Positions 4,900 to 62,878 of a stretch of DNA of 64,000 nucleotides are shown piece by piece; the first letter of the stretch is position 1, and every line of letters begins with the position of its first letter. Both the position numbers and the translations under genes were made by a program. Source of the stretch: an uncultured Planctomycetales bacterium (GTDB lineage Bacteria; Omnitrophota; Gorgyraeia; Aquiviventales; Aquiviventaceae); the NCBI GenBank assembly GCA_964624155.1, contig CAZUWM010000002.1:5159-69158 (forward strand). Direction: 5' to 3'. The notes beneath the pieces are model-generated. The model was not told where the DNA came from. It made no database searches and was given only the letters and a program-made list of their open reading frames with translations.

Positions 4900-4909
4900 G
4901 TTTACGAGT

Positions 4910-4998
4910 CCATAGTCCGCAGTCGATAGTCCATAGTGAGAAATCAAAAAATGCTTCGAGGTTTGTCTATCGACTATGGACTATGGCCTATGGACTAA
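4910..4998. repeat. Inverted heptamer array, CCATAGT arm / ACTATGG arm (3 tandem copies)
   Basis: ccatagtccgcagtcgatagtccatagtg ... cgactatggactatggcctatggacta; between thpR start and pgpA stop. Confidence 0.8.
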
Positions 4999-5463: not shown

Positions 5464-6028
5464 CGCGCAAGAGTCCCCGATGGCGCCAGAAAAAACTGGC
5501 TCCTGAGACGATGGTCAAGATCACCGTCACCCACAAGGCCACCGCGATGATCTGTGTCATGACGTGATCGGCGGAGATGGGGAGTGCTGCCGCAAAGGCT
5601 TCTCGGATGATCAAAGAAATCAGGATCAGCACGACGGCCACCATCTGGGAGACCGTTTTATGCTTGCCTTCCTTCGCGGCCGCGATGACGATCTTGCGAT
5701 TGGCCGCGTAGAGTCGCACACCGGTGATGAGGAGTTCCCGAGCGAGAATGACGACCACCATCCAGGCTGGGACGAGACGGAGTTGGACGAAGCTGATCAA
5801 CAAGCCCAGAATGAGGATTTTATCGGCGATGGGATCAAGGAGGGTGCCCAGGGGGCTGGTTTGATTGAATCGCCTCGCGACATACCCATCAAGCCAATCC
5901 GTCAGCGAGGCAAGGGCAAAGAGAAGCAGGCAGACGACTTTCGCCGTCATCCCAGGAACGATCAACAAGCCCATGATCACCACGGTGAGCAGGATGCGAA
6001 GGACGGTGATCTTGGTGGGCAGCGTCAT
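5444..6028 (-). CDS. pgsA: CDP-diacylglycerol--glycerol-3-phosphate 3-phosphatidyltransferase
   Basis: CDP-alcohol phosphatidyltransferase motif DWLDGYVARR...GTLLDPIADK; 194 aa membrane protein. Confidence 0.85.
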   Translation of the reverse strand: MTLPTKITVLRILLTVVIMGLLIVPGMTAKVVCLLLFALASLTDWLDGYVARRFNQTSPLGTLLDPIADKILILGLLISFVQLRLVPAWMVVVILARELLITGVRLYAANRKIVIAAAKEGKHKTVSQMVAVVLILISLIIREAFAAALPISADHVMTQIIAVALWVTVILTIVSGASFFWRHRGLLRDASARP

Positions 6029-7407
6029 GTCAAAGTCGGAAGTGGGAAGTCGGAAGTGGGAAGTGAGATGTTCGCTTCCGCGACCAAATCGTATTCGTAG
6101 GTGTCGGTGATCGTCACTGGGACGATCTGGCCGGGAACCAGCGGTGTGGCGTTCGTCACGTAGACCACCCCGTCCACTTCAGGACAATCGGCTGCGGTAC
6201 GCCCGACAAACTGCGTTGGCTCGGATGGATCGGCCTCGTCAATGATGACCTCGCATCGCCGTCCCAGCCACGTCCGGTTGATCTCCGACGCCACACGCTG
6301 TTGTACCTGCATGAGTTGATCGTAGCGGCGTTGCTTCACCGCCTCCGGAACCTGATCCGGATACCGAAAGGCTGCTGCGCCTTCCTCGTTCGAGTACTGG
6401 AAGGCGCCCAGACGTTCGAATTTCATGTCTTCAATGAACTCGATCAGCGCCTCAAAAGCCCGTTCGGTTTCTCCGGGAAACCCGACAATGACCGCGGTGC
6501 GCAGGGAGATGCCCGGGATCTCCCGCCGGAGTCTCGCCACGCGTTCGCGGATGTGTTCCTGGGTGATCCCGCGGTTCATCCTCATCAGGACGTCGTTGTC
6601 GGCGTGCTCGATGGCCGAGTCGAGATACTTGCAGACGGTGGGGATATCTCGAATCGCTTCGAGAATCTGCGGGGTGATGCCCTTCGGATGGCAGTACAAC
6701 AATCGAATCCAGCGAAGGCCTTGAATCGTTCCTAACGCGGCGAGCAGATCGGCGATGCGCGGCTGACCGTAGAGATCGACACCGTAATCGGAGGTGTCCT
6801 GGCCCACGACAACCAATTCCCTGACTCCCCGCTCCTCAACGAGTCGACGCGCTTCCTCCACGAGATCCTCCATCGGCCGACTCGCCAGAGGCCCCTTGAT
6901 CTTCGGGATGATACAGAAACTGCAGCCTTTCAGGCAGCCTTCAGACACTTTCAGATAGGCATAGTGCGATGGGGTAAGGGCGACGCGGGAAGGCTGCCCG
7001 CGGTGCGGCAGGCGTGGTCGTCGGCGAATGAGTGCGTGGTGTTCACCCTTCAGGACCTTGTGGACGACCGTTTCAATGTCACCAAACCCATCCACCCCAA
7101 CAAACCCATCGACCTCAGGAAGCTCTTTGACCAGTCCTTCTTTGAATCGCTGGACCAAGCACCCGGCGACGACGACCGCCTTGAGCTTCCCTTGCTGCTT
7201 GAGCTCCGCCACCTGCAGCACGGTGTCAATGGATTCTTGGATCGCCTCCTGGATGAAGCTGCACGTGTTGATGATGGCCACATCCGCTTGTTCCAGCGTG
7301 TCGACCACGGTCAAACCGGCTTGTTGTAGCTCGCCCAGATAGAGCTCGGAATCCACCAAGGTTCTGGGACATCCGAGGCTGATCAGATGAACGGTCGGTT
7401 GTCTCAT
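6025..7407 (-). CDS. rimO: Ribosomal protein S12 methylthiotransferase RimO (MiaB-family radical SAM + TRAM)
   Basis: N-terminal ISLGCPRTLVDSE, radical SAM CxxxCxxC (CSFCIIP), C-terminal TRAM; last ~15 aa are encoded by GGAAGTN heptamer repeats. Confidence 0.8.
   Translation of the reverse strand: MRQPTVHLISLGCPRTLVDSELYLGELQQAGLTVVDTLEQADVAIINTCSFIQEAIQESIDTVLQVAELKQQGKLKAVVVAGCLVQRFKEGLVKELPEVDGFVGVDGFGDIETVVHKVLKGEHHALIRRRPRLPHRGQPSRVALTPSHYAYLKVSEGCLKGCSFCIIPKIKGPLASRPMEDLVEEARRLVEERGVRELVVVGQDTSDYGVDLYGQPRIADLLAALGTIQGLRWIRLLYCHPKGITPQILEAIRDIPTVCKYLDSAIEHADNDVLMRMNRGITQEHIRERVARLRREIPGISLRTAVIVGFPGETERAFEALIEFIEDMKFERLGAFQYSNEEGAAAFRYPDQVPEAVKQRRYDQLMQVQQRVASEINRTWLGRRCEVIIDEADPSEPTQFVGRTAADCPEVDGVVYVTNATPLVPGQIVPVTITDTYEYDLVAEANISLPTSDFPLPTLT
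6030..6080. repeat. Tandem GGAAGT(G/C) heptamers x4 with one CTTCC partner
   Basis: gtcggaagtgggaagtcggaagtgggaagtgag; at rimO 3' end / pgsA start. Confidence 0.8.
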
Positions 7408-7447
7408 CTGTGAAATCGATTGTGCAATCTGTGTAATCTGTGGTGTG
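7406..7447. repeat. ATCTGTG heptamer cluster (3 copies)
   Basis: catctgtgaaatcgattgtgcaatctgtgtaatctgtgg; rimO start / rodZ-like end. Confidence 0.75.
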
Positions 7448-8307: not shown

Positions 8308-10485
8308 CTATTCAGAATGGGCGACTTCGGGTCTGGAGAAGATCTCGCGAGGGCGACTGCCCTGGGCCGGTCCGACCAGACCTTCTTGTTCCATCTGATC
8401 AAGGATGCGCGCGGCTCGTCCATAACCCAGCCGTAAGCGGCGCTGGAGAAATGACGTGGACGCCTGGCCGGTCTCCAGGACCAGCCGCTTGGCCATATCA
8501 TACAACTCATCCTTCTCACCCATCAAGCCGAATTCCGCGGGCTGATCTTGTTTGACCAACAACTGTTCATCATAACTCGGAGCGCGTTGGGCTTTCAAGA
8601 AATTCACCAATCGCTCAATTTCTTCATCCGTCACATAGCAGCTCTGGGCGCGAATCGGTTTGGCCGTTCCCGGTCGCAAGAACATCAAATCTCCGCGACC
8701 CAGGAGTTTATCCGCCCCGTTCATGTCCAAGATCGTGCGCGAGTCCACCTTTGACGCCACCTGAAACGCGATGCGAGCCGGAAAGTTGGCTTTAATCACG
8801 CCCGTGATCACGTCAACCGAAGGACGCTGCGTGGCCAGGATGATATGCAGGCCGACCGCTCGAGAGAGCTGGGAGAGCCGCGTGATGGCCTCCTCCACAT
8901 CCTGCGAGGCCACCATCATCAGATCCGCCAATTCGTCGATCACGATGACCAAATATGGAAGACGCTCAAGGCTCGAGGCTCCAGGCTCGAGGTTCTGGTC
9001 TTGCCTTGAGCCTTCAGCTTTCAGCCTAGGGCATCTTTCATTGTAGGCATCGATATTCCTGACCCCAACTTTCGCTAAGACCTGATAGCGACGTTCCATT
9101 TCCGTCACGGCCCAGGCCAAGGCGGCTGCCGCTCGCTTCGCATCCGCGACCACAGGAGCGACCAGATGGGGGATGTCATTGAAGAGTATCAGTTCCACCT
9201 TTTTCGGATCGATCATGAGGAATTTCACGTCATCCGGACTGGCCTGATACAACATCCCGGTCAGCAAGCTGTTCAAGCACACGGTCTTGCCCGATCCGGT
9301 CGCTCCGGCGATCAAGAGATGGGGACACTCGCGCAGGTCCGCCACCAACGGGTGACCTGACACATCCATCCCAATGCCAAGCGCCAGCGGCGAGCGCAGC
9401 TGAGTGAACTCGCGGGAAGTCATCAGGTCTCGCACGTAGACGGTTGTCGCTCGATGGTTGGGCACATCCACCCCCACGAGTCCCTTGCCGGGGATGGGGG
9501 CGATGATATGGCAGCTCGCCGCCTTCAAGACGAGCGCCAAGTCATCAGCGAGCGAGACGATCTTGGTCAGTTTGACTCCGGGAGCGGGTTGGAGTTCATA
9601 CCGGGTCACCGTCGGTCCGCGATCGATGTTGAGCACGGTGGCCTCAATGCCGAATTCCCGCAGGGTCTCCTCCAGAATGCGCGCATTGGTCATTGGGTCT
9701 TCCCCGGGCTCCGCCTGCCGCTGGGCAAGCGGCGGAGGTTGCGTGAGAAGGTCTAACGAGGGCAATTGAAACCCCCCGCTCGTTTGCCGAGCGCGGGCGA
9801 GTTTGGTTGGGGAGAGAGGGGGCGGAATGGTTTTGGGGTTCTGGGTCACGATCGGGTTTCTGATCGATGGCCGTGCTGTTTCAGTGGATCGAACGGCGTG
9901 GTTGGCATCGGCGGATCGCCACGATGAACGTGGGGTCGTGGCCACGGATCGTCTCGTGAAACGCTCGCGGATGGCGTTCCACCAGGTCTGGAGCCCGCTC
10001 ACCCACCGACGAGGAAGAACCCTGGTGTCCACCATCAGCGTCCACGACAAGTAGCCCACACAGAGCGCCAGCAACGCGCTCCCGATGGAGCCTAAATAAT
10101 ACCGGCCGGCCCGAACACCCAGGTAGCCCACGACACCCCCGAGCGCCGTTTGTCGGGTTGGGTCCATCGTACTGAGGGCGATCAAGGTCGAAGCGCTCCC
10201 GAGCAGGAACAGACTCGCAAGGCCTGTGGTGGTCCATCGTCCGTGATCCAGGGTGTTGGTGCGCCACAAGCGGACGGACCAGACGCCCGCCAGGACCGGG
10301 ATGAGGAGCGACGCCCATCCGAATCCTCCCCGCCCGATCAACGCGACCCAAGAACCGACAACACCGCCGATGTTCCGAAGAGGTTGGTTGGGCTCAGAAC
10401 TCAGGAGAGACAAATCTGCGGGATGGTACGACGCGACAGCCAGCAGCACAAACACTCCCGCTGCGCTGATGAAAGCGCTCACCAC
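8308..10485 (-). CDS. ftsK: DNA translocase FtsK/SpoIIIE
   Basis: N-terminal 4-5 TM segments, linker, FtsK ATPase (GATGSGKT Walker A) and gamma winged-helix domain. Confidence 0.9.
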   Translation of the reverse strand: MVSAFISAAGVFVLLAVASYHPADLSLLSSEPNQPLRNIGGVVGSWVALIGRGGFGWASLLIPVLAGVWSVRLWRTNTLDHGRWTTTGLASLFLLGSASTLIALSTMDPTRQTALGGVVGYLGVRAGRYYLGSIGSALLALCVGYLSWTLMVDTRVLPRRWVSGLQTWWNAIRERFTRRSVATTPRSSWRSADANHAVRSTETARPSIRNPIVTQNPKTIPPPLSPTKLARARQTSGGFQLPSLDLLTQPPPLAQRQAEPGEDPMTNARILEETLREFGIEATVLNIDRGPTVTRYELQPAPGVKLTKIVSLADDLALVLKAASCHIIAPIPGKGLVGVDVPNHRATTVYVRDLMTSREFTQLRSPLALGIGMDVSGHPLVADLRECPHLLIAGATGSGKTVCLNSLLTGMLYQASPDDVKFLMIDPKKVELILFNDIPHLVAPVVADAKRAAAALAWAVTEMERRYQVLAKVGVRNIDAYNERCPRLKAEGSRQDQNLEPGASSLERLPYLVIVIDELADLMMVASQDVEEAITRLSQLSRAVGLHIILATQRPSVDVITGVIKANFPARIAFQVASKVDSRTILDMNGADKLLGRGDLMFLRPGTAKPIRAQSCYVTDEEIERLVNFLKAQRAPSYDEQLLVKQDQPAEFGLMGEKDELYDMAKRLVLETGQASTSFLQRRLRLGYGRAARILDQMEQEGLVGPAQGSRPREIFSRPEVAHSE

Positions 10486-12989: not shown

Positions 12990-13087
12990 GAAGTACAGGT
13001 AGTATACTCTCGAATCTCTTAAGCGTCAACGAAAGAACACCGAAAGGGAGCCTCTAAGCCGAGTTCTGTCCCGCCAACGATCTATGG

Positions 13088-13490
13088 CGGAGATGGTCAT
13101 CCATCTGGGTCCCGCCTTACGGCGGGACTCCTGCGGCCCACCTTCCCATAGCCCCCCTGTTTCGTTTTGCTTCGCAGAGCGAAACAAAACGAGGGGGAGC
13201 ACCGGCCGGGCCAGCCGTTATAGGACGTTTGGCCTTGCTCCGCGTAGGGTTTGCCATGCCCCCTTGGTCACCCTCAGGGCGGTGGGCTCTTACCCCACCG
13301 TTTCACCATCACTCCCACCGCTTTGTTTCGCTGCGCGAAGCAAAGCGAAACAGTGGGAGCTGTCTGCTCTCTGTTGCGCTGTCCGTCCCCGGTTTCTCGC
13401 GAAACCAGAGCCTGGGAATTACCCAGTACGCTGCCCTGTGGAGCTCGGACTTTCCTCCCCCCTAGATTGGCTTCGGGGCGACCATCCAGC
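13088..13490 (-). ncRNA. rnpB: RNase P RNA, bacterial type A (ends +/-10 nt)
   Basis: Minus-strand read contains P4 GGGAGGAAAGUCCGAGCUCCACAGGGCA, GGUAAGAGCCCACC, CGGAGCAAGGCCAAA and P1-pairing ends; no ORF in region. Confidence 0.85.
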
Positions 13491-13502
13491 TCCCTTTCGG
13501 TG

Positions 13503-14630: not shown

Positions 14631-14704
14631 TGGGCGTAAGAGGACTCGAACCTCTGACCTCATGCATGTGAGGCATGCGCTCTGACCGACTGAGCTATAC
14701 GCCC
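14631..14704 (-). tRNA. tRNA-Val (anticodon CAC)
   Basis: Minus-strand cloverleaf GGGCGTA/TACGCCC acceptor stem, D-arm GCTC/GAGC, anticodon stem CATGC/GCATG with loop CTCACAT, T-arm AGAGG-TTCGAGT-CCTCT; 74 nt; CCA not encoded. Confidence 0.85.
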
Positions 14705-14712
14705 GTTCCTTG

Positions 14713-14797
14713 TGGGGTCAGGGCTTTACATTTGACATTTCCAACAAACGGCCACGCGCGCCTGGCCCCAAAATGTAAGATGTAAAGCCCTGACCCC
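14713..14797. repeat. Long inverted repeat (18-bp perfect stem ggggtcagggctttacat / atgtaaagccctgacccc, ~49-nt loop) between the two tRNA genes
   Basis: Seen directly in sequence; no T-tract, so not a canonical intrinsic terminator. Confidence 0.6.
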
Positions 14798-14803
14798 TAT
14801 TTC

Positions 14804-14875
14804 TGGGCCGGGGACGGATCGAACGTCCGACCAAGTGGTTATGAGCCACCTGCTCTGCCACTGAGCTACCGGCCC
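14804..14875 (-). tRNA. tRNA-Met, elongator type (anticodon CAT; could alternatively be tRNA-Ile2/lysidine)
   Basis: Acceptor GGGCCGG/CCGGCCC, anticodon stem GGTGG/CCACT with loop CTCATAA, T-arm GGACG-TTCGATC-CGTCC; 72 nt; 5' end abuts/overlaps rpoD stop codon by 1 nt. Confidence 0.8.
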
Positions 14876-19177: not shown

Positions 19178-20650
19178 TTATTGGCCGGCGGCGGCGACGG
19201 CTCGCTTGCCCTTATCCTCGACGAGATGGACCGTCATAAAAATGAGCAGGTCCAATTGATCCTGGCCGGATGGGGTCTGCTCCCGTCGATTCGTAAAGAG
19301 GGCGCCCAAGATCGGAATATCGCCGAGAATGGGAACCTTGCTTTGCGTCACCCGCTCAGCCTGTCGTTTCAACCCTCCGATCGCCAAGGTCTGCCCATCG
19401 ACAAGCCGCACCTGCGTCTGGGCTTTCTGGACATCAAAATCGGGAAACGTGATCCCCGAGGCGTACGTCCGATCAGACCCCACGGTGGTGATTTCCGGCT
19501 TGACGTCCATGACGATTTCTTGTTCCAGGTTCACCTGGGGCTTCACCTTGAGAATGATCCCGGTTGAGCGCGTCTGAAACCCACTGACCGTCGCGCGACC
19601 CGTCGAGGGATCGACCTGAAAATTTGGAATGTTCACATCCGTCCCCACCTGGACACTGGCTTCTTGGTTGTTCAACGTCACAATGGTGGGATTGGAGATC
19701 ACCCGCGTATCCACCCGCTGCTTGAGCATGTTGATGGTCGTCGCCAACTGCGACATCGTGATCGTCCCGAAGACAAATTGACCGCCTGCGTTCGGAATGA
19801 ACCCCTGGTTGGCGACGGCGTTGGTCGCCGCCGAGGTACCGGTGTAGAAGAGATCCCCTGGCCTGGTGAGGAACGTTTCTCCTACTTTGCCATAGGTGGC
19901 GCCCGTCCGATACGGAAAGGTCGTTGAGGAGGTCGCCGGGCTGACGGTCAACTGCATGCTGTCAAACCAGTCAATGCCGAGATTCTCATCCCGCGTCAAC
20001 CGGGTCTCGACGAAGCGCGACTCGATGTGGACTTGGGGGGTCTGCCGATCCAATCGCTCCACGACCTGCTTCAGCTGAAAGAGGTTGGCGGGCAAGTCGG
20101 TCACAATGACCGTATTGGTCCGATCATCGAACTTCACCTTGCCGCGCTCCGTCAACATCTCCTTGACGATCTCCATGACCTCTTTCGACTTCGCGTAGTT
20201 CAACGCAAAGACCTCGGTCCCCAACGCTTCTTGCTCCACCGCCTCCAAACTCATGACGCGGATGACGTTGCCCTTGCGATCATACGTGAAGCTGTACGTG
20301 CGCAGGACGATATCCAGCGCTTGTTCCCACGGGACGTTGGTGAGTTTAATGGTCACCAATCCCTCCACATCGGGGCCGGCGACAACGTCGACCCCGCTTT
20401 TCAGGGACAGGATCCTCAGGACTTGACGGATGTCGGCATCCTTGAAGTCCACACTGATCAGTCCTGTCGGCGCGAGGTCTTGAAGGGGCTGGCTCTCCCC
20501 GACGGCCACCTCGCCGGATTCGGTTTCGTCGGACCACGCCTGAGGGCCGCCGATGAGGCTGAAGCCCACCAGGCCGACCACCACACGCATGATGCCTCGT
20601 CCCATTCCATCACGGCGCATCACTTTGCACCTCCTTCGACGTATGTTCAC
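19178..20650 (-). CDS. pilQ: Type IV pilus secretin PilQ
   Basis: N0/secretin-N domains, secretin C-domain (NPTIVTLNNQEASVQVG...VPILGDIPILGALF); follows pilMNOP. Confidence 0.85.
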   Translation of the reverse strand: MNIRRRRCKVMRRDGMGRGIMRVVVGLVGFSLIGGPQAWSDETESGEVAVGESQPLQDLAPTGLISVDFKDADIRQVLRILSLKSGVDVVAGPDVEGLVTIKLTNVPWEQALDIVLRTYSFTYDRKGNVIRVMSLEAVEQEALGTEVFALNYAKSKEVMEIVKEMLTERGKVKFDDRTNTVIVTDLPANLFQLKQVVERLDRQTPQVHIESRFVETRLTRDENLGIDWFDSMQLTVSPATSSTTFPYRTGATYGKVGETFLTRPGDLFYTGTSAATNAVANQGFIPNAGGQFVFGTITMSQLATTINMLKQRVDTRVISNPTIVTLNNQEASVQVGTDVNIPNFQVDPSTGRATVSGFQTRSTGIILKVKPQVNLEQEIVMDVKPEITTVGSDRTYASGITFPDFDVQKAQTQVRLVDGQTLAIGGLKRQAERVTQSKVPILGDIPILGALFTNRREQTPSGQDQLDLLIFMTVHLVEDKGKRAVAAAGQ

Positions 20651-21114
20651 GGCGTTCCATAAGTCTCGGCCTCACGTGATTTCACCGATTCGTCGAACGT
20701 GATCCGGAGGGTCACCCGGCGACCCTCCCGCTCGAGCACGACCTGATCCTCATGGATTTCCGCCACCCGGTAGCCCCCCACCATATCTCCCACCACGGTG
20801 TCTTGCTCATTCAAGAGGGCGATGGAACGACCGGCCGGATCCCACAAGATCCCCCCCAGCAATGGCAGCGAGGTGTCCAGGGGTCCTGAAAGCAGAAGGG
20901 TGTCGCCGCTCGCTGCAATGGCCCGTCCATCCCGAACGAGCGGCACAAACGGATCGCGTTTGCCCTTCGCATCGTACGTCTCCGCCTTCACAGATAGCAC
21001 AGCAGCACAGAGGACACAGATGAAAGCACACAACACCACAGAGCACACAGAGAACTTCTCCGTGTCATCTGTGGTGTAGCGCTTTTTCTCTGTGTGATCT
21101 GTGTTCTGTGACAT
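20647..21114 (-). CDS. pilP: Type IV pilus assembly protein PilP
   Basis: RDPF motif (KGKRDPFVPL), beta-rich C-domain; N-terminal ~40 aa are encoded by the CACAGAT repeat array, so true start is uncertain. Confidence 0.7.
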   Translation of the reverse strand: MSQNTDHTEKKRYTTDDTEKFSVCSVVLCAFICVLCAAVLSVKAETYDAKGKRDPFVPLVRDGRAIAASGDTLLLSGPLDTSLPLLGGILWDPAGRSIALLNEQDTVVGDMVGGYRVAEIHEDQVVLEREGRRVTLRITFDESVKSREAETYGTP

Positions 21115-21170
21115 CTGTGGTTATCTGTGTATCTGTGCCATCTGTGCAGCATCTGTGGCATCTGTGAGGG
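20988..21170. repeat. Large palindromic array: ~7 CACAGA(T/G) units on left arm, ~10 (A/T)TCTGTG units on right arm
   Basis: Spans pilO 3' end and pilP 5' end; translated into both proteins. Confidence 0.85.
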
Positions 21171-21729
21171 TCACATACGTCAGCAAGATAAGCTTCACGT
21201 TGTGGCGGCGCAGCTCTCGCTCAGACTGACTGATCCGCAACTGCTTGACCTCGATGGACTGATCCCCGGATTCGACACGACTGAGGAACATCCCGAGTTG
21301 ATGGAAGCCGGACAACGCGTCGATTTCGATGGCCACCGCCTTATAGAGCCCTAGCGAGACCTGAGTGTTTGGCTCCAACGGTTGAGCGGACCGCTGGGGA
21401 AAGATGGAGAGAATTTTCACGCCGGTCTGACTGGCCAGTTCTGAGATCCATTCGATGACGGTGGGTAGCGCGTCCTCGGAGGGGAGCTGGTCCCGCAACT
21501 GGGCCACGCTGGTCTGGAGACCGGCGTATTCTTGCTGGATGTTCGTCGCTTGAGCCATCAACTGCTCCATCTGTTGAACTTGCTTGCTCGCCTCGCGGAC
21601 CTGCTGGCTCAGGCGGACGACCGCACCAGCGAGCGGCTGCAGGAGATACAGGTAGTAGACGTACACGGCGAGGCTCATCAGCATCACCAGCCCAACCAGG
21701 AGTCGCCGTTTTTCGCTCAGGCGCTTCAT
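21121..21729 (-). CDS. pilO: Type IV pilus assembly protein PilO
   Basis: N-terminal TM, coiled coil, PilO-like C-domain; C-terminal 14 aa (TDATDAAQMAQIHR) encoded by the repeat array. Confidence 0.75.
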   Translation of the reverse strand: MKRLSEKRRLLVGLVMLMSLAVYVYYLYLLQPLAGAVVRLSQQVREASKQVQQMEQLMAQATNIQQEYAGLQTSVAQLRDQLPSEDALPTVIEWISELASQTGVKILSIFPQRSAQPLEPNTQVSLGLYKAVAIEIDALSGFHQLGMFLSRVESGDQSIEVKQLRISQSERELRRHNVKLILLTYVTLTDATDAAQMAQIHR

Positions 21730-21730
21730 C

Positions 21731-22306
21731 TCATTGTACAGCAGCTTCCAGGACGCATGTCACCGTAAACAGAGTGATCTCTACGTCGTTTTCTCTTGTG
21801 CTTTTGATGGATTCGATTTGAATGTCCCGAACCGCGGAGGTAAACGCCGGCTGGTCCTTGAGATTCTGAACCAGTTGGCCGATCTGAGCCATTTCTTGCC
21901 CCTCTTGACCGAGCGCGGCCCCCTCAATCACCAGCCCGCGAACCGGATCCAGGGAGAGGGTCGTGAACCAAATGCCTTCCGGGGTGGCATCAGAGAGCGT
22001 GTTGAGGCGCCTGGCCCACACGCTCTCGCCACGATGCAAGCCCTCAAACGACGTCTGCTGGGTCCGAAGCTTCTGAAGGGTGACGCGGAGCCGATCCACC
22101 TCCACGCGCCTGGGTTGCAGTTGCTGCAACTGCGCATTCAAGTGATTGAGCTGCATCTGACGGACCTGCCGGACGAGCGCCAGCAGGATGGTCAGACCCA
22201 GGACGATCGCCACGACCACCGAGACGAGCGGTGAGCGGTGGAGTGGGGGAAGAGGGGTGGCGGTCGTCTTGCGATACGACTCTGGCAAGAGGTTGATTGT
22301 GAACAT
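21731..22306 (-). CDS. pilN: Type IV pilus assembly protein PilN
   Basis: Internal Met start MFTINLLPESYRK (canonical PilN N-terminus), TM, coiled coil. Confidence 0.75.
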   Translation of the reverse strand: MFTINLLPESYRKTTATPLPPLHRSPLVSVVVAIVLGLTILLALVRQVRQMQLNHLNAQLQQLQPRRVEVDRLRVTLQKLRTQQTSFEGLHRGESVWARRLNTLSDATPEGIWFTTLSLDPVRGLVIEGAALGQEGQEMAQIGQLVQNLKDQPAFTSAVRDIQIESIKSTRENDVEITLFTVTCVLEAAVQ

Positions 22307-22307
22307 G

Positions 22308-23341
22308 TCAGCCTCGAAGGGCCAACCCGTACGCGATCGCAAACTGGTTTGACACCCGCTGGGCGAAGGGCCATGGTGTCACCGGCTGTGTGAGGTGTTT
22401 CTTCAACGCCTCCAGCAGCCCGCCCGATTGACTCAGGCCACCGCTGAGAACGACGTGATTGGGAGACGGCCCGAAATGGCTCTCGAAGAAATCAAATGAC
22501 AACTGCAATTCTTCGATGAGCGGTTCACATCCCGTCGCCAACACGTTCAACATCTCAGACGACGGCAGGGTACTCTGCTTCAGTTGGGTCATCGCGCCGG
22601 CCTGGTCAAGCCCAGCCTGACTCGCCATATACTGAACCAGCTTCTCCGCTCCCCATGGGATGTCGCGCACGAGATACGGCACCCCGGTTTTCAACACCGC
22701 CAGGTTAGTCCACTGGGCTCCGACGTTGATCAGCGCCGGCGTCTCCGAGTGTGGCGTGCCATTCGCGTGTTCGAGAAAAGCGTTCGTGAGCGCCAACGCA
22801 TCAACGTCCACGGTCGTCACCTCGAATCCCGCGTGTTTCACCCATCCCAACCGTTGATCGAGGAAATCTCGTTTGCACGCGACGATCAGCACCCACATCT
22901 TACTACCTGAGGAGCCAAGCACCGCCCCATCCAACACCACATCCTGAATATTGAATGGCAGGGACCGTTGGGCCTCATACGGAAGGGCTTGTCGAAACTC
23001 CGCAGGACTCAAGGTCGGCATTTCCACCACGCGCATAATCACCCACTGGCCGCTGACAGCCACCGCCACCCCTTTCAGATGTGGAGCGGGCAATCCGTTG
23101 AGAGCCTGTTGAATGGCGTGAGGGATCTGCGCCTCTTGGCCGGGTGAGATCTCAACGAGCTGTTGGCCCAGCACGCGGCGCCCGCCGAGGGCTTTGTGAG
23201 GACCTAACGCGATGGCTTTGATGGAAGAAGATCCGACATCGAGTCCCACGGCGAACTTCGCTTCTTTCGGTTTGATCGCCACGACCTGTTTGACGAACTG
23301 CCAGGCGAACTGCAGGGACTGCGGCAGGGCGAGCGGGGGCG

Positions 23342-23345
<4 letters not shown>
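22308..23345 (-). CDS. pilM: Type IV pilus assembly ATPase-like protein PilM (actin-like)
   Basis: FAVGLDVGSSSIKAIAL phosphate-1 motif; position upstream of pilN. Confidence 0.8.
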
Positions 23346-24033
<688 letters not shown>

Positions 24034-24049
<16 letters not shown>

Positions 24050-24606
24050 GTCATCAAGGTCGCCAACGTGGCGGGGGATTCGATCACCCCGTTGGCGGCA
24101 AACCCGTTCACCCCTTGCTGGGATTGTAATGCACCGTTCTGCCAGACACATTCCCCGAGCGTCCGATTCCGATGACGCCAGCAGACCGAGACGGTCAGCC
24201 GAATCGGGTCGTCACCGACAACGCAGGCAGCCGTGGTGCCCGCTTCGTTCTGGCACGTCACGACGATCAGCTCCTCCGTCAACGGATTGGGTTGAAGGCT
24301 CTTCCCGCCACCGCAGCGCTGCAACCAATCGTCCCATGAGGCGATGGGATCCGTGCAGGTGCCCTGTCCCGTTGCGGCAGGCACAGTATTCGATGGCAAC
24401 GTCGAGCACGTGGGGGTGGTGTTCTGCAACCTGAGTTGTTCCATGACGCGATTGGCGTCATTGATCGCCCAGGTGAGATTTCTGGCATGCTCTGCAAGGA
24501 TCATCTGTCCGAGAAACGCTCCTAAAAACGCGGTCACCGCAAGGGCCAGAATCGCCACGCCGATGAGAACTTCCGGCAGCGTGAAGCCTCCGTGCCACGG
24601 CCTCAC
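24034..24606 (-). CDS. Type IV minor pilin (PilV-like)
   Basis: GTG start giving MRPWHGG|FTLPEVLIGVAILAL; Cys-rich C-domain. Confidence 0.65.
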
Positions 24607-46390: not shown

Positions 46391-46500
46391 TCACAGATAC
46401 CACAGATGCACAGCACCACAGATAGCACAGATAAAGCACAGAATCTGTGGAACAGTTATCTGTGTCATCTGTGGAAGGTTCTGTGTCATCTGTGGTGTGT
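46391..46500. repeat. Large palindromic array: CACAGAT x5-6 / ATCTGTG x5, centred on cacagaatctgtg
   Basis: Between LacI start and secretin A stop. Confidence 0.85.
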
Positions 46501-46511
46501 TTTGCGAGGGC

Positions 46512-48065
46512 TCAGTTCTTCACAGAGGCGAGATGGGCACCGGTGGGATTGACGAGCTGGGCGGTGACGAAAATCAACAAGTTGGAACGCTCCACGGAAT
46601 CATCCTCCTTGCGAAACAGCGACCCGATGATCGGCATCGACCCCAGCACAGGCACTTGGGTCCTGGTCTTCGTCGTCGTGTCCTTCATCAGCCCTCCGAG
46701 CACGACGGTCTGGCCATTGTCGATCACCACGGTGGTTTCCAGGTTGCGGGTGGTAAATCGCGGCAGCGACACCTCTCCCCCAAATGTGTCGTCAGTTTTC
46801 TTTTCGCTCACTTCGGGCTTGAGCGCCAGGGTGATCGTCTTCAGATCTTGCCCCACGCTGGGTGTCACCCGCAACAAAATACCCAGGTCTTTGGTTTGAA
46901 AGTCTTGCGGCACTTGGATGAAGCGCGTCTCCCGTACCCCCGCTGAGGAGACGTCGTTGAAATCCCCATCTTTATTGAGATCCTCCCGTTTGACTGACGC
47001 TTCATAGCGGCTGGCGTAGACAAATTCCGTGACCACCTTGATGGCGGCGGTCTGGTTGTTGAGCGTCGTCACCCGAGGCGCCGACAGGGTCTTGGTTTTC
47101 TTGTTCTGGGTCAGCGCATGCAGGACCGCGGAATATTGCGTGCCGGTCAGGATGCCCTGGAAGGTGAGGTTCAGCGCGTTACCCGAGGTCTGATTGGCGA
47201 AATCGCTGAAGGCGATTTTCGTCCCGCGCTTGAGGGTTGGTCCCGTCGTGGCGAGCTGAACCTCGGGACCTTTTTTCACCACCAGATTCTCGGTGAGCTG
47301 CTCATCAAACCCCCACTCAAAGGTGTCCGTCAAGGTCAACTCAATAAAGCGGGCTTCGATCATCACTTGAATCGGCTCAACGTCCAGTTGGACCAGCAAC
47401 CGCTCGACTTGCTCGAGGTAGTACGGCACGTGCGCGACGATGAGCGCACCGCTGCGCTCATCGAGCAGGAAGGTGCTGTCTCCCACCTGGGGAATCACCT
47501 CAGTCAGGATATCCTTGACCGTTTTGAGTTCTTTGACGCCGGTGCCTTGCAACGCCACGCTCTCGCGCACATCCGCCAGCGGCTCAAAGGCGGCTTTCAA
47601 CGCCAACCCCTGCTTCAGATAGTACACCCGTGTATCGAGGGCTTCGGCTTCCATCTCATCGCGGCTGGCAATCCAGATGGTTTCACCATCCAACCGGTAC
47701 AGCAGTCCTTGGCCTTTGAGCAGGTAATCCAGCACGCGAGACAGGGGCATCTCCACGAGATGCATCGTCACCGGCTTGCCCGTCGTCTTGGCTTGCTCGG
47801 AGAGCACGATGTTCACCCCGCCTCCTTCGGACAGGAAGTCCATCGCCGCACTGAAATCGACTTCCTGGAAATCGGCGGTGACGGGTTGGTTCAACCGATC
47901 TCGAATGGTTTGTACGCTGACCGTGGTGGCCACCGGCGTAGAAGGCTCCGTCACCCCCGCCCACGTCGGGCTGGCAATGACCAAGAGGCACAGACCCGCC
48001 ACACCGGGATGTTGCGTGACTCTCCACTTCGCCAGGGTTGAACCCATTAACTTTTGGGGAGTCAT
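46512..48065 (-). CDS. Secretin (GspD/PilQ family), paralog A
   Basis: Signal peptide, N0 domain, secretin C-domain (RVTTLNNQTAAIKVV..., VPVLGSMPIIGSLFRKEDDSVERSNLLIFVTAQLV). Confidence 0.8.
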   Translation of the reverse strand: MTPQKLMGSTLAKWRVTQHPGVAGLCLLVIASPTWAGVTEPSTPVATTVSVQTIRDRLNQPVTADFQEVDFSAAMDFLSEGGGVNIVLSEQAKTTGKPVTMHLVEMPLSRVLDYLLKGQGLLYRLDGETIWIASRDEMEAEALDTRVYYLKQGLALKAAFEPLADVRESVALQGTGVKELKTVKDILTEVIPQVGDSTFLLDERSGALIVAHVPYYLEQVERLLVQLDVEPIQVMIEARFIELTLTDTFEWGFDEQLTENLVVKKGPEVQLATTGPTLKRGTKIAFSDFANQTSGNALNLTFQGILTGTQYSAVLHALTQNKKTKTLSAPRVTTLNNQTAAIKVVTEFVYASRYEASVKREDLNKDGDFNDVSSAGVRETRFIQVPQDFQTKDLGILLRVTPSVGQDLKTITLALKPEVSEKKTDDTFGGEVSLPRFTTRNLETTVVIDNGQTVVLGGLMKDTTTKTRTQVPVLGSMPIIGSLFRKEDDSVERSNLLIFVTAQLVNPTGAHLASVKN

Positions 48066-50398
48066 GTGACTGGGCCGCGGGAAGCGATAATCCGCGCGGT
48101 GATGAAGATGACGAGATTCTTGCGAGTGACCGTCTCGTCCTTCTGACGGAAGAGCGGCCCCACGAGCGGCAGGTCGCCGAAGAACGGCACTTTGGTCACG
48201 GTGGTGGACCGCGTGTCTTTCATGAGTCCGCCCAGCACCACGGTTTCGCCGTCATGAATCACCACACTGGTCGTCAGTTGGCTGGAGGTGAATTCCGGCA
48301 CCGTCACCCCGCCCCCCAGATCGCGGAACTGACTGAACGAGCTGACCTCCGGCACGAGGACCAAGGTCATCGTCTTCAGGTCCTTGCCGACGCTTGGGGT
48401 CACGTTGAGGAGGATGCCGACGTCCCGTTTTTGAATGTCTTGCGGGACGTTCACAAACTCGGTTTCCCCGGCATCGTCAAAATCCCCGTCGCCGTTGGTA
48501 TCAAATTGGACGAGCGAGACCTCGTAACGGGTGGGATAGCGGAATTCATCGACCACTTTGATCGTCGCGGGTTTATTGTTCAAGGTGGTCACGCGGGGGG
48601 CGGAGAGGGTCTTGCTCTTCTTGCTTTCCTCCAAGACATGGAGGACGGCCTCAAACTTCGCCGCGGTCATGACGCCTTGCAGGGTCAAATTCACTCCTTC
48701 GTCCTCGCGGCTCAGGGCGGGAAACTTAAAACCGCCTCCTGTGGCAATCTGATTGCCGCCCGTACGGCCGGGCGGGGTCGCCTGGTTGGGACGCGTGTCG
48801 GTCCGCTTGGTCAGATCATACGCATCCGTCAGCACCATTTCCAATCCGAGGTGCTCCAGATCCGTCATCGTGAGTTCGATCACTCGCGCTTCAATCAGGA
48901 CTTGAATCGGGGTGACGTCCAGTTGACTCAGCAGGTGTTCGGTCAATTGCAAGTTCTCCCCCGTGTTCGTGATAATCAAGGCGCCGATGCGTTCATCAAC
49001 GACCAATTTGCTGTCGGGCGGCTGGGGGACGGTTTGCGTAATCAGGTCTTTGATCGACTCCATTTGTATGAGTGGGCTCTGCTCGACCGCCGACACCTCC
49101 AAGGCTGAGGGACTGAAACCGCTGCGCAGGAAGAAGACACGGGTTGCCATCGGCTGATTCTCGAATTCTTCCTTGGTGGCCAGCAGGACCGCGTCCTGCT
49201 CGATGCGATAGGAAAGCGTGAGGCTTTTGGCCAAGTATTTGATCGCGTGCTCCAACGGCAGATCGTTAACCTTAATGGAAACAAGCTGCGTCTTGAGGTC
49301 CAACTGCGGGGAGGGGATGATGCTGATCCCCGCGCCATCCGCGATAAAGTCCACCACGTCCCCCAGGGCGACCTCGCTGAAATCCAAGCTGATGGGCTGT
49401 TGGAGCTTGGCGCTGAATTGCTCGCTCGCTCCATAGGGACTCGGCGGGGAGACGAGCCCGACGGTCTTGGCCTCCGGCACGACTTGCGCCTTGAGGACGT
49501 CGTGGATCATCTGGCGCTCATCCATCACAACGCGGCGCTCCAGCCGATCCTGCTCCTCCGTCAGCTTGGCGTCCTGCACCTGTTCCATCAACCGCTGGGC
49601 CGCTCGGTCCGAGGGGTCCTGGACCAAAATTTTCGTCAGCAGTTTCGTCGCCGTGTCATACTGGCGCTCGGCCAAGGCCACTTTGGCGTATTTCATGGCG
49701 GTCTCGAGCTCGATCCGTTTCTCCACCAACAACTGCTCCAACTGGGACACCACCGCTCCCTCGCCAGGTGCCGCCGTGGGAGCTCTGGCGGTGGTCCGCG
49801 CCTGATCTTCATAGCGCTTCAATTCCACCCGCGTGACGAGACGATCCGCCGCTTTGACGAGCGGATGGGAGGGATCGACGAGAGCCATCTGTTGCAGCAC
49901 GGAGATGGCGTCGGTGTACCGTCCTTGTTGATACAAGGCCAGCCCTCGGTGATACAACTCTTTGAGCTGACGCTCCCGGGCGAGTTGGATTTGACGTTGG
50001 GCTTCCCGACTTTTCTCGACGCGCTCTCGGACTTTCTCGCGCACCAGCTTCTCAGCCACTTCGGCGGCCTCGCGGCGAACCCCAGGCGCGCTCAGGACTC
50101 GAGCAGGACGGGTTTTGGAGACGTGTTCGGCGGATTGTTTTTCGCGAATCAGCGCTTCGGCGAGGGCGTTGGCTTGGGCTTGGAGGCGCGCGCAACGCTC
50201 GGCCTCTTCCCCGGTGAGGCCGGCACACGGCGAGCTTGTGGTGAGCGAAGTCGAACCAGAGGATGATTCGGCAGGAGGGACTGGCGTGAAGGACCACGTC
50301 GCGAGCGCACTCGCAAGGAGGACGCTCACCCACGACCGCAAGCGACGCCTCGACATGGTTTCATCGTAACCAACTGTCCCCGTGCTGTCAAGCGTCAT
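48062..50398 (-). CDS. Secretin (GspD/PilQ family), paralog B with ~400-aa coiled-coil/TPR-like N-terminal extension
   Basis: Same secretin core (RVTTLNNKPATIKVV..., VPFFGDLPLVGPLFRQKDETVTRKNLVIFITARII); ATGA-type overlap with paralog A. Confidence 0.8.
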   Translation of the reverse strand: MTLDSTGTVGYDETMSRRRLRSWVSVLLASALATWSFTPVPPAESSSGSTSLTTSSPCAGLTGEEAERCARLQAQANALAEALIREKQSAEHVSKTRPARVLSAPGVRREAAEVAEKLVREKVRERVEKSREAQRQIQLARERQLKELYHRGLALYQQGRYTDAISVLQQMALVDPSHPLVKAADRLVTRVELKRYEDQARTTARAPTAAPGEGAVVSQLEQLLVEKRIELETAMKYAKVALAERQYDTATKLLTKILVQDPSDRAAQRLMEQVQDAKLTEEQDRLERRVVMDERQMIHDVLKAQVVPEAKTVGLVSPPSPYGASEQFSAKLQQPISLDFSEVALGDVVDFIADGAGISIIPSPQLDLKTQLVSIKVNDLPLEHAIKYLAKSLTLSYRIEQDAVLLATKEEFENQPMATRVFFLRSGFSPSALEVSAVEQSPLIQMESIKDLITQTVPQPPDSKLVVDERIGALIITNTGENLQLTEHLLSQLDVTPIQVLIEARVIELTMTDLEHLGLEMVLTDAYDLTKRTDTRPNQATPPGRTGGNQIATGGGFKFPALSREDEGVNLTLQGVMTAAKFEAVLHVLEESKKSKTLSAPRVTTLNNKPATIKVVDEFRYPTRYEVSLVQFDTNGDGDFDDAGETEFVNVPQDIQKRDVGILLNVTPSVGKDLKTMTLVLVPEVSSFSQFRDLGGGVTVPEFTSSQLTTSVVIHDGETVVLGGLMKDTRSTTVTKVPFFGDLPLVGPLFRQKDETVTRKNLVIFITARIIASRGPVT

Positions 50399-50466
50399 TC
50401 ACAGATGACACCGATACACATGCCACAGATGACACAGATTAATTCTCTCTTCTGCGCTCTGTGGTG
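50396..50466. repeat. CACAGAT x3 with partial CTCTGTG partner
   Basis: secretin B start / PilP-like end junction. Confidence 0.7.
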
Positions 50467-53415: not shown

Positions 53416-54975
53416 TTATTCGATCTTCCACAACTTGATCGGCGGTCCGTAGGGCACGACGGTGCCAGGCGGCTGAATCCCGACAATCCAGGTACGCTCG
53501 GCCGGCGTGGGATCCTCTTCTTCGTCCGGCTGGATGCCGTCCTGGCCGTTGGACTCTTTCGCGGCCTTCACACGGAAGTAGTGGTTGCCGTAGGAGAGTC
53601 CCTCTTTCTTCGCCACCGTCTCAGAGTTCCAGGCCGACCAGCCGTCGTGGTCAAAGGCGTACGAGAACACACACCCGCCTTCCGGACAGGTAAAGCTGAA
53701 CGGCGCGCTCGTCGATGGGGTGAAGCCGGCCGGCCCGCTGAGGATGATGGTATCCGGTGCTAGCAAGTGCAGCTCAATGTCCGCCGCCACCGGCTCGGAG
53801 ATATTGCCGACTTTATCGATGAATTTGACGTAGACTTTCTGGGTTCCGTTGACTGAGTTCAACTTCCACAGCTCTCGCACCGGGTTAAAGGATTCTTGGA
53901 CGAAGCCCGTCACCGCATCGTTGCTGATGAGCATCCCGGTGACCCCGGAGATCGCATCCGAGCTGGAGAGGTTCAGCGTCACATAGACACTCGTGGTCAT
54001 CGCGGCCCCCGCGTTGATCAGCACCGAGCCGGTTGGTGGGGTCACATCCGTGGTGAAGCTCCACACCAAGGCGGTTTGCTTGTTGCCGACGCGGTCAGAG
54101 GCTTCGACCTGAATGGCGTTCGCGCCCTCTTTCACCAAGCCGGTACTGGTCGCGGTCACGACTCCGGTCGTCTCATCGACGCTGACCGACGACTGGAGGC
54201 CGTTGATCAACAACTTGATCTGCGAAGCCCCCACCCCGCTGTGGGGATCCGTCACGTTGACGGAAATGCCGGGTTTGAGGGTGTTCAACAGACTCCCCGC
54301 CGCCGGGGTGTAGGTCCCCAGTGCCGGCGCGGTCGTATCAAGCCACAATGCAAAGGACAAGGGTGTCCCGGCATTGCCGGCCGAATCCACGGCTTTGACC
54401 GAAAAGAGGTGCTGGCCGTCGGCCAGCCGTTTCAGGGGGTCTTGCGCCACGTCCCAGGAGGTGCCTTTCGTGTCAATGATCGTGTCGGGATCTCCATTCA
54501 GCGCATAGCTGTAGCCCTCCACCAACTCAGGCGCCTGCGCTTGCCAGATGAAGATCGGATCGGCATCGCGCTGCCAGGTCTTCTGGCTGATCTCGGTTCC
54601 GAGGGGCGCGGCCTTCGCATATAAGAGCGTCAAGGCCAGATTGCCTTTGACGACGGAGATGGCCGGACCCAGGGCCGCGCCAACGAATCCTGTGAAGACT
54701 TGAACCGTCTTACTGGACAACTTGTCTGCGCTGAAGGCCGCACCCATCGTGGTGGTTTGTCGGTGTCCCGATGAGGAACTGGTGACGACCCCGCCCAATT
54801 GCGTGGTCTCGCCGATCTCCAGCGTTTTGGTCTCGCTCTTGGCGCGCGCCGCCTCCACCAAACCAGTCGACAGTCCATAGTCCATAGTCCATAGCAAAAG
54901 AGCAACGGCGAGAGAGCGCCCAACGAACAACGGCGTGACGGTGGACGGTGGACGGGAGACGGTGGACGGTATCAT
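53416..54975 (-). CDS. Secreted protein with tandem bacterial Ig-like (Big) domains
   Basis: Signal peptide; repeated Ig-like segments (DTTAPALGTYTPAAG..., TDVTPPTGSV...); no pilin N-terminus; signal peptide partly encoded by CCATAGT repeats. Confidence 0.55.
   Translation of the reverse strand: MIPSTVSRPPSTVTPLFVGRSLAVALLLWTMDYGLSTGLVEAARAKSETKTLEIGETTQLGGVVTSSSSGHRQTTTMGAAFSADKLSSKTVQVFTGFVGAALGPAISVVKGNLALTLLYAKAAPLGTEISQKTWQRDADPIFIWQAQAPELVEGYSYALNGDPDTIIDTKGTSWDVAQDPLKRLADGQHLFSVKAVDSAGNAGTPLSFALWLDTTAPALGTYTPAAGSLLNTLKPGISVNVTDPHSGVGASQIKLLINGLQSSVSVDETTGVVTATSTGLVKEGANAIQVEASDRVGNKQTALVWSFTTDVTPPTGSVLINAGAAMTTSVYVTLNLSSSDAISGVTGMLISNDAVTGFVQESFNPVRELWKLNSVNGTQKVYVKFIDKVGNISEPVAADIELHLLAPDTIILSGPAGFTPSTSAPFSFTCPEGGCVFSYAFDHDGWSAWNSETVAKKEGLSYGNHYFRVKAAKESNGQDGIQPDEEEDPTPAERTWIVGIQPPGTVVPYGPPIKLWKIE
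54872..54894. repeat. Tandem CCATAGT x3
   Basis: gtccatagtccatagtccatag; encodes part of the Ig-like protein signal peptide (LWTMDYGL). Confidence 0.8.
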
Positions 54976-62783: not shown

Positions 62784-62878
62784 TCACAGATGGCACAGAG
62801 ACTCCACAGATGGCACAGATACATTCCCTCTGTGGTTCTCTGTGTTCTCTGTGGTGTGTATCTGTGCTATCTGTGGTT
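62784..62878. repeat. Palindromic array: CACAGAT x4 / TCTGTG x5
   Basis: Between glycoside hydrolase stop and ROK regulator start. Confidence 0.85.

Follow-up and report, generated by a model that had tools for sequence, protein, structure and literature searches.

A palindromic repeat array at the pilO-pilP boundary of an Omnitrophota genome, probably co-opted as coding sequence with a presumed signal peptide

How can the boundary between two pilus genes, and the segment that would export the product of the second, be written in repeat DNA? The question is raised by a 64,000-nucleotide stretch (the window) of contig CAZUWM010000002.1, assembly GCA_964624155.1, from an uncultured bacterium of the Omnitrophota. 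At the junction of its pilO and pilP-like genes lies a CACAGAT/ATCTGTG palindromic array of about 180 bases (window 20989-21166). It substitutes for some 87 nt that, in array-less relatives, hold an overlapping pilO stop and pilP start together with an ordinary signal peptide. We think it probable that a copy of a repeat family that carries no open reading frame (ORF) has replaced this boundary and has been co-opted as coding sequence, including a presumed signal peptide.

How is the array built? On the + strand, the left arm holds five exact CACAGA hexamers (at 20989, 21006, 21015, 21037, and 21046) and two degenerate units (CACAGC at 20998 and CACAAC at 21029). The right arm holds ten TCTGTG hexamers within 21068-21166, past a 15-nt loop (21052-21066). 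These positions and counts agree with the original prediction, made from the letters of the window, of about seven left and ten right units. Nearly all window genes lie on the minus strand. On this coding strand the 5' arm (21067-21166) has about ten CACAGA(T) units, set 0-4 nt apart, and one degenerate stretch, and the 3' arm (20989-21051) comprises the five exact and two degenerate TCTGTG units. Unit spacing is irregular (7-11 nt, median 9; Tandem Repeats Finder (TRF) reports period 9, 77% matches, and 16% indels), and the element is therefore a motif array rather than a clean tandem repeat; with its variable spacers, it does not have the head-to-tail 7-nt period of simple sequence repeats of the short tandemly repeated repetitive (STRR) type. 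The window has 43 copies of ATCTGTG, where dinucleotide shuffles give 8.3 +/- 2.9 and never more than 19. The minus-strand RNA of the array folds as one long imperfect hairpin (-93.8 kcal/mol, z = -7.1), and the corresponding DNA fold has z = -5.6. A search of the window against Rfam matched RNase P RNA and tRNAs, and no family on the arrays.

What does the array encode? The pilO gene (21121-21729, minus strand, 202 aa) ends in ..LTYVTLTDATDAAQMAQIHR, followed by a TAA at 21121-21123. As had been predicted, its last 14 residues (TDATDAAQMAQIHR, 21124-21165) are array-coded; they lie outside the Pfam PilO domain (residues 40-185, E = 5e-13) and are unconserved in relatives. The PilP-like ORF (20647-21114, minus strand, 155 aa) begins MSQNTDHTEKKRYTTDDTEKFSVCSVVLCAFICVLCAAVLSVKAE. 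Its ATG (21112-21114) sits inside an CACAGATG unit, 6 nt past the pilO stop and in the pilO frame, the two genes being set apart by the TAA and two codons only. Read from 21166 down to 21067, the 5' arm thus supplies the tail and stop of pilO as well as the pilP ATG and the first 16 PilP residues; residues 17-21 come from the loop and residues 22-42 (SVCSVVLCAFICVLCAAVLSV) from the 3' arm. Here the original division of labor needs correction: the + strand left arm had been credited with about 40 residues of the PilP N-terminus, of which it encodes residues 22-42 only, and the right arm encodes PilP residues 1-16 in addition to the PilO tail. Residues 21-42 (FSVCSVVLCAFICVLCAAVLSV) form the sole hydrophobic segment of the PilP-like protein ahead of the conserved ETYDAKGKRDPF. 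The array ends three codons short of a conserved A/E position (slashes in sequences mark a cleavage site or an array boundary), with cleavage predicted after A44 (codon 20983-20985).

The junction DNA was compared for seven relatives: L001 (P0003), L002 (P0004), L003 (P0005), L004 (P0002), L205 (P0015), L206 (P0008), and L207 (P0009). The named homologues of the PilP-like protein come from metagenome-assembled genomes (MAGs) of Candidatus Omnitrophica. In 28 of 30 aligned family members an N-terminal hydrophobic segment is followed by ..A/E and then by the motif YDAKGKRDPF (YDAKGKRDPFVPLVRDGR); the remaining two entries start downstream of where it would lie. Array-less L002, L206, and L207 have the pilP ATG about 8 nt past the gtgacc codons of ..YVT, overlapping the end of pilO, and an ordinary signal peptide coded by non-repetitive DNA (for example MLRREYLIYSLLWTTAIAVTWLSTARA/ETPSEK), as do more distant homologues. 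In the window, L001, and L003 the first CACAGATG unit falls exactly on the ancestral ATG position (gtgaccctcacagATG). The arrays of these three and of L004 extend to or close to the A/E codons, with 5' plus 3' arm unit numbers of 10+6 in the window, 4+8 in L001, 7+5 in L003, and at least 3+5 in L004, whose contig begins inside the array and leaves the 5' boundary outside view. L205 carries a decayed palindrome (ggggacataaacaa..ttgtttgtgtcccc) and two TCTGTG units. The alignment of PilO and PilP orthologues, which had been proposed as a check, thus finds the repeat-coded residues to be lineage-specific. In L205 (GCA_016206725.1, 2335-2450) the PilP-like protein is annotated as just 88 aa; from its sequence, the real pilP start seems to be the ancestral ATG, which opens an ORF reading MLTPKPRGDINKLLKTIKIVCVPYLMICDLCWG/EYDARGK.

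Which ATG is in frame differs among these alleles. From the ancestral-position ATG, the reading frame continues into mature PilP across the entire array in L001 and L003 and across the decayed palindrome in L205; in L004 no stop interrupts the frame as far back as the contig start. In the window, that ATG (21159-21161, minus strand) opens a 57-aa ORF (20988-21161) in another frame, which reads the entire array, a hydrophilic half and then a hydrophobic half, until a TGA closes it at the edge of the array; the frame of mature PilP is entered from a later CACAGATG instead. The 3' boundary of the array varies among L003, L001, and the window, and the window is without nine codons (xSEKIAAVI) found in L001, L002, and L004. 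Simple insertion with target-site duplication was rejected as an origin, since the array replaces about 87 nt rather than adding to them and its 3' boundary varies.

By synonymous divergence (dS) of pilN, pilO, pilP, and pilQ, the window groups tightly with L001, L002, and L004 (0.25-0.8), and within this cluster nearest neighbors disagree between genes; L003 and L205 lie outside it and L207 is far off. Since array-less L002 is nested among array-bearing lineages, a single-gain history requires recombination or replacement. The array allele may have arisen once and move by homologous recombination, it may have been gained repeatedly at the same site, or L002 may have regained an ordinary allele.

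What is the protein downstream of the array? The gene order is pilM (22308-23345), pilN (21731-22342), pilO, the 155-aa ORF, and a PilQ-like secretin gene (19178-20650), all on the minus strand; the secretin gene follows directly, its start overlapping the pilP stop. PilM, PilN, PilO, and the secretin have Pfam matches, and the same pilM-to-secretin order is found in L001, L002, L205, and L207 (an L002 ORF supposed to be a pilin orthologue is pilM). The 155-aa protein gives no match to Pfam PilP (PF04351) and sub-threshold matches only to T2SSB and T2SSC. A profile of its family matches the homology region (HR) domain of GspC (2lnv, E = 1.4e-4). AlphaFold predicts a confident beta-domain at residues 80-140 (pLDDT about 95), for which Foldseek returns GspB 4wfw, PulC 6hcg_e, GspC 3oss_C, and PilP 2y4y_B with probability 0.84-1.0 and TM(target) 0.55-0.71, but with E-values of only 0.02-0.6; LspC was also matched. 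No [LVI][ASTVI][GAS]C lipobox occurs in the protein, and the signals of its homologues end in ..A/E. These comparisons identify the ORF, by modeled fold, as a PilP/GspC-type HR protein without a lipobox. It resembles the canonical PilP lipoprotein and GspC of type IV pilus and type II secretion systems in the position of its gene between pilO and the secretin gene, and in a C-terminal HR beta-domain that matches PilP 2y4y, GspC 3oss/2lnv, and PulC 6hcg. It departs from canonical PilP in having neither a lipobox nor a PF04351 match, and in an N-terminal targeting segment that is repeat-coded and varies among close relatives. When the 44-aa array-coded N-terminus was searched with HMMER against 1.84 billion representative sequences, it found itself and one weak internal match; the peptide is not a conserved module.

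Does the array-coded segment work as an export signal? The mature PilP-like domain has a ratio of nonsynonymous to synonymous divergence (dN/dS) of 0.13-0.27 in all pairs, including those with arrays in both members, and the gene is therefore maintained. Purifying selection on the mature domain makes it most likely, as judged from sequence, that the segment is a working Sec signal or signal anchor. Each arm keeps its character whatever the frame: the 3' arm is hydrophobic, with mean hydropathies of +2.43, +1.86, and +2.19 in its three frames and one stop in one frame, and the 5' arm is hydrophilic, with -1.73, -1.52, and -1.38 and ATGs in two. In the window protein, 22 uncharged residues (F21-V42) form the hydrophobic core, well past the ten usually looked for, and the maximal 15-residue hydropathy is 3.23, compared with 1.5-2.4 in array-less relatives. 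The -3/-1 positions carry small uncharged residues at the site that the family conserves, V-K-A/E in the window aligning with A-R-A/E, G-W-A/E, and C-W-A/E of relatives. The earlier suggestion that the repeat had been co-opted as a signal sequence thus gains support from the alternation of arrays and ordinary signals at one site and from the purifying selection. Its alternative, a PilP start downstream at a lipobox, finds neither a lipobox nor an in-frame start codon between the array and the YDAKGKRDPF motif.

Several observations weigh against this interpretation. The n-region of the window protein has a net charge of -1, atypical for Sec signals, as has that of L001 (L003, L004, and L205 have +4 to +6). 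The h-region is long (22 aa) and contains four cysteines, and AlphaFold gives the N-terminus low confidence and no helix, which is uninformative on whether one forms. A hairpin of -94 kcal/mol within a coding region could hinder translation. Support for the export role is wholly computational. The nesting of array-less L002 noted above belongs here too, as do three features of the wider repeat family: the flanks of the pilO-pilP copy depart from the family consensus, tblastn finds no gene of the associated GxxExxY family in the 64-kb window or related loci, and array-coded N-termini of long ORFs are rare in other phyla, with two doubtful cases, among about 320 loci scanned, of a long ORF that begins in a 5' arm and continues through a 3' arm. 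From this last count, signal co-option is uncommon beyond the Omnitrophota lineage studied.

How could translation of pilP begin inside such a hairpin? Junction RNA folds have z = -4 to -10 in array-bearing genomes and about +0.5 in array-less ones. In the ensemble, positions -15 to -1 relative to the ATG at 21114 are 71% unpaired and the ATG itself 36% unpaired, surplus units in the 5' arm placing the pilO stop and the pilP ATG in a bulged region. A GGAG in the loop (21061-21058) lies 9 nt ahead of an in-frame GTG (V23, 21046-21048), a possible alternative start; both stand at the hairpin apex fully base-paired, with an unpaired probability of 0.00. On the coding (minus) strand, the junction shows neither a promoter-like nor a terminator-like site, the 3' arm being followed by AAGGCGGAG with no U-tract. 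From the bulged position of the stop and ATG, the paired GGAG and GTG, and the lack of such sites, it is likely that pilP is started by termination-reinitiation coupling, as it is arranged in array-less relatives. A hairpin that modulates pilO-pilP translational coupling, as had been proposed, would be compatible with the predicted fold and the 6-nt stop-to-start gap.

We propose the following sequence of events. Ribosomes on pilO would continue for 42 nt into the 5' arm and terminate at the TAA (21121-21123) in the bulged, largely unpaired part of the hairpin, and would reinitiate 6 nt on at the ATG of the CACAGATG unit (21114), much as they may do at the overlapping stop and start of relatives. 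The remainder of the 5' arm would then yield the n-region, and the 3' arm the h-region, of a Sec signal peptide or signal anchor. Signal peptidase I would cleave after VKA, and the mature HR domain would reside in the periplasm, docked on the secretin. As to origin, we infer that the ancestral start, or the DNA next to it, received a solo CRCRGAT-family palindrome, which expanded by slippage; the old signal peptide would have become dispensable, and the array may have spread among close lineages through recombination.

Could the array be something other than a coding element? One alternative is a non-coding RNA or DNA element, such as an mRNA-stabilizing hairpin, an RNase III site, or a cruciform, with the annotated PilP N-terminus an artefact of ORF extension; PilP would then be cytoplasmic, exported by another route, or non-functional. 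Most copies of the family, in the window and in other phyla, are indeed intergenic (58 of 61 solo palindromes in other phyla lie outside long ORFs), and the predicted hairpin is strong. Yet the missing in-frame start ahead of YDAKGKRDPF, the hydrophobic signal in 28 of 30 homologues, the selection on the mature domain, the frame left open from a 5'-arm ATG in the window, L001, and L003, and the lack of a U-tract or promoter all speak for a coding role, and we regard a purely non-coding element as improbable. That the array is an artefact of assembly, or low-complexity sequence arisen by chance, is hardly credible. Metagenome assemblies may mis-join palindromic repeats and some cross-phylum matches sit at contig ends, but arrays occupy the same pilO-pilP site in four independent assemblies from different samples and occur in isolate and long-read complete genomes, and chance is excluded by the shuffled counts and the fold z-scores.

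A contingency locus is a rival of another kind, for it is compatible with co-option. Slippage in the array would shift the frame and switch PilP, and with it pilus assembly, on and off, the coding of a signal being secondary. At this one site, close relatives (dS 0.25-0.8) differ in unit number and in spacers; units with their spacers do not add up to multiples of three, and the window has lost the frame of the ancestral ATG and uses another CACAGATG. In Haemophilus, phase variation of HMW1A is driven by heptamer repeats (PMC8262952, PMC12721329). Irregular spacing, with the TRF values given above, makes for a poor slippage substrate compared with perfect tandem repeats, however, and the frame is open (ON) in five of five lineages with an array or decayed palindrome, although the start of L004 is cut off by the contig end. 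We therefore hold phase variation to be an unlikely primary role, and return to co-option of the array as coding sequence.

Where does the array come from? The repeat unit is not confined to the Omnitrophota. A scan of 185,579 species-representative genomes for CACAGAT-N1-4-CACAGAT-N1-4-CACAGAT gave at least 120 loci, against about 4 that we estimate by chance. The listed matches include isolates and closed chromosomes, and come from Bacteroidota, Planctomycetota, Verrucomicrobiota, Acidobacteriota, Chloroflexota, Cyanobacteria, Proteobacteria, Spirochaetes, Patescibacteria, NC10, and Actinobacteria, as well as from two MAGs labelled archaeal. Viral contigs of IMG/VR hold at least 120 further loci with arrays of this type. 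Across phyla, 311 unit periods measure 10 nt and 110 measure 9, the left arm precedes the right in 66 cases and follows it in 5, and loops measure 3-201 nt. The window array, with C[AG]C[AG]GAT units at a median period of 9, falls within the 9-10 nt range. The palindrome order, a CACAGAT-type 5' arm and an ATCTGTG-type 3' arm, reads the same on either strand, and the paired clusters of the window always run from CACAGA to TCTGTG. The outer flanks have the consensus AAC/CRCRGAT ... ATCYGYG/GTT, with C at -1 in 80%, from which the pilO-pilP copy (cccT/CACAGAT, TCTGTG/aag) deviates. Because of this mismatch, and with no GxxExxY gene in the window or related loci, its membership of the family is carried by unit sequence, period, and polarity only.

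What has been said of this family before? As far as we found, the CRCRGAT palindrome family is undescribed, the full-text matches for CACAGAT/ATCTGTG being unrelated primers, and literature searches on GxxExxY, 23S intervening sequence (IVS) proteins, and Omnitrophota repeats turned up nothing on such arrays. Rfam, applied to ten array-bearing loci, matched one tmRNA and one tRNA and nothing on the arrays. DnaA boxes, Pho-box-like response-regulator sites, and transposon terminal repeats, all suggested by the 10-nt period, were considered as candidates, and none would explain the complementarity of the arms and their co-variation. In one Patescibacteria MAG (L031, 4667-5164) a 5+4-unit CACAGAT palindrome starts 6 nt past the 3' end of a tmRNA gene, suggesting that in some genomes such palindromes have a function at the 3' ends of transcripts.

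Do these palindromes have a partner gene? At three unrelated genome loci, both arms closely flank a gene for a 125-140-aa GxxExxY protein (TIGR04256, E = 1e-43). We collected 80 GxxExxY loci by protein similarity alone, 59 of them with enough flank. At least two CRCRGAT units lie within 150 nt upstream in 32 of the 59 and at least two ATCYGYG units downstream in 36, with both arms in 27; among control windows, 8 of 402 have such units. Of 31 cassettes, 24 carry one and the same unit variant on the two arms (CGCAGAT paired with ATCTGCG, for instance), and further variants are CACCGAT, CGCAAAG, and CACAGAC. An in-frame ATG within a CRCRGATG unit occurs in 28 of 72 GxxExxY ORFs, and in 26 of those 28 this start lies 21-32 residues ahead of the motif (mode 26). 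Cassettes may be tandem, an arrangement that recalls cassette arrays: at about 1884-2010 of L140 the left arm of the next cassette, bearing an ATG of its own, directly adjoins a right arm, and at about 1423-1570 of L125 several right arms succeed one another. On an Oscillibacter contig (L064, 4418-5208) the two arm types stand 750 nt apart around a YafQ/RelE-like toxin ORF, the only candidate cargo seen that is not GxxExxY, which fills less than 60% of the gap.

By analogy with known systems, CRCRGAT/ATCYGYG palindromes might be non-autonomous partners of GxxExxY PD-(D/E)XK nuclease-like genes, forming an undescribed cross-phylum selfish-element system comparable to REPIN-RAYT. The arms of such elements would bring their own start codon (CRCRGATG) and fold as long hairpins. 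Solo copies that landed on a gene boundary would then serve, through the composition of their arms, as frame-tolerant modules of start plus signal peptide, and the pilO/pilP junction would be a replacement caught in the act. We offer this scheme tentatively and regard it as somewhat doubtful. REP/REPIN elements, with their RAYT transposases, are likewise short palindromes dispersed by the hundreds at gene junctions: in both cases most copies are solo hairpins, and a few flank a small nuclease-type gene in inverted orientation (Bertels & Rainey 2011, PMC3116915). There are differences as well. Arms here are arrays of 7-nt units with a 9-10 nt period in place of a single 20-40 nt palindrome; the gene is GxxExxY, PD-(D/E)XK-like, where RAYT is an HUH transposase of IS200/IS605 type; the same unit is found across phyla; and mobility is only putative.

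Other repeats share parts of this behavior. TAACTGA heptamers of marine Beggiatoaceae, Cyanobacteria, and Bacteroidetes likewise lie just 5' of starts across unrelated phyla, in some cases run into the end of the preceding ORF, and in some cases code peripheral protein residues (MacGregor 2015, PMC4679880). They are direct, perfect 7-nt tandems with stops in all frames in one direction (PMC4679880), whereas the arms described here are inverted relative to each other, with spacers between units and with ATGs, and translation would pass through them to give a presumed N-terminal export signal. Cyanobacterial STRR and the GGGNATC repeats of Xanthomonas and Nostoc are also abundant intergenic heptamer arrays, mostly between co-directional ORFs, that are transcribed and vary in unit number (Rehm et al. 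2015, PMC4692102). These are G-rich and quadruplex-forming, following a single-stranded logic, with no palindromic pairs and no signal peptides reported (PMC4692102). The tandem repeats of Borgs evolve fast, become coding, and add lineage-specific segments to conserved proteins, as here; those are in-frame, perfect direct repeats that yield disordered regions, and here a palindrome replaces a functional targeting signal (PMC9879509). We consider two things new: a palindromic array that stands where a gene boundary and a signal peptide used to be, and an association of its unit family with GxxExxY genes across phyla.

Why would such a replacement matter? If our reading is correct, this is a case of a protein-targeting signal replaced by repeat DNA, with ancestral-type and derived alleles in close relatives, and one palindromic repeat may supply stop, start, and export signal together. 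To our knowledge, heptamer-type arrays have been known in cyanobacteria, Xanthomonas, and Beggiatoaceae for decades with no agreed function; the present locus would give a concrete handle on the role of short-period intergenic repeat arrays, and the CRCRGAT unit family would be tied to the uncharacterized GxxExxY (TIGR04256) protein family in many phyla. There is a practical side as well, in that gene callers mis-start or truncate genes at such arrays, P0015 of L205 being an example. Type IV pili of Omnitrophota are thought to be important for host attachment (PMC10066038), and a hypervariable PilP signal could therefore affect pilus assembly.

How do the other arrays of the window compare? 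Of its 65 CACAGA/TCTGTG hexamers, 54 fall into 11 clusters, all at ORF boundaries. A full palindrome of five CACAGA and five TCTGTG units (46392-46494) lies between a secretin gene and a LacI-type gene. Another, of 4+5 units (62785-62875), has outer flanks ggaaC/CACAGAT ... ATCTGTG/Gttcc, like the cross-phylum consensus. Three CACAGAT units at 7407-7442 (minus strand), the last of them CACAGATG, give the ATG of a RimO-like gene (6025-7407, minus strand) with UPF0004, radical SAM, and TRAM domains; the Pfam UPF0004 match starts at residue 6. The tail of this protein had been said to be repeat-coded, and so it is: its last 15 residues, beyond TRAM (..SLPTSDFPLPTLT before the stop), are coded by a single-arm array of GGAAGTS heptamers (6033-6065). 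A similar claim for the signal peptide of an Ig-like protein also holds at the level of sequence. The Big_13 protein (53416-54975) begins MIPSTVSRPPSTVTPLFVGRSLAVALLLWTMDYGL.., coded across a CCGTCCA/CTATGGA array pair, but its hydrophobic core is mostly loop-coded.

Repeats of other units accompany these. Seven or more additional palindromic pairs, built of tandem arrays with a pure 7-nt period and with the units AGTCCAT, GCTSAAG, GAAGTCG, CCGTCCA, GAATTYG, and GAAGTGG, lie in the window, every one at a gene junction; among them are those at 4907-4997, 8964-9027, 23941-24029, 54872-54970, 57993-58066, and 59102-59175. In several, the arms differ at the same two of seven positions (for example GAAG[TG]G and GAAG[GC]G), which would give 5-bp helices split by regular 2x2 internal loops. 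A prepilin-like ORF (23342-24151, minus strand; ..RRG/FTITELLMAAAIFVAIGG) has a putative long leader (KSEIGSRKSEPKGGTRKSEVGS..) coded by a GAAGTCG/TTCCCCC array pair. Two more secretin genes stand in tandem at 46512-48065 and 48062-50398, each bordered by a CACAGAT array (46392-46494 and 50400-50463). The RNase P RNA of the window lies at 13039-13497 and two tRNAs at 14631-14875.

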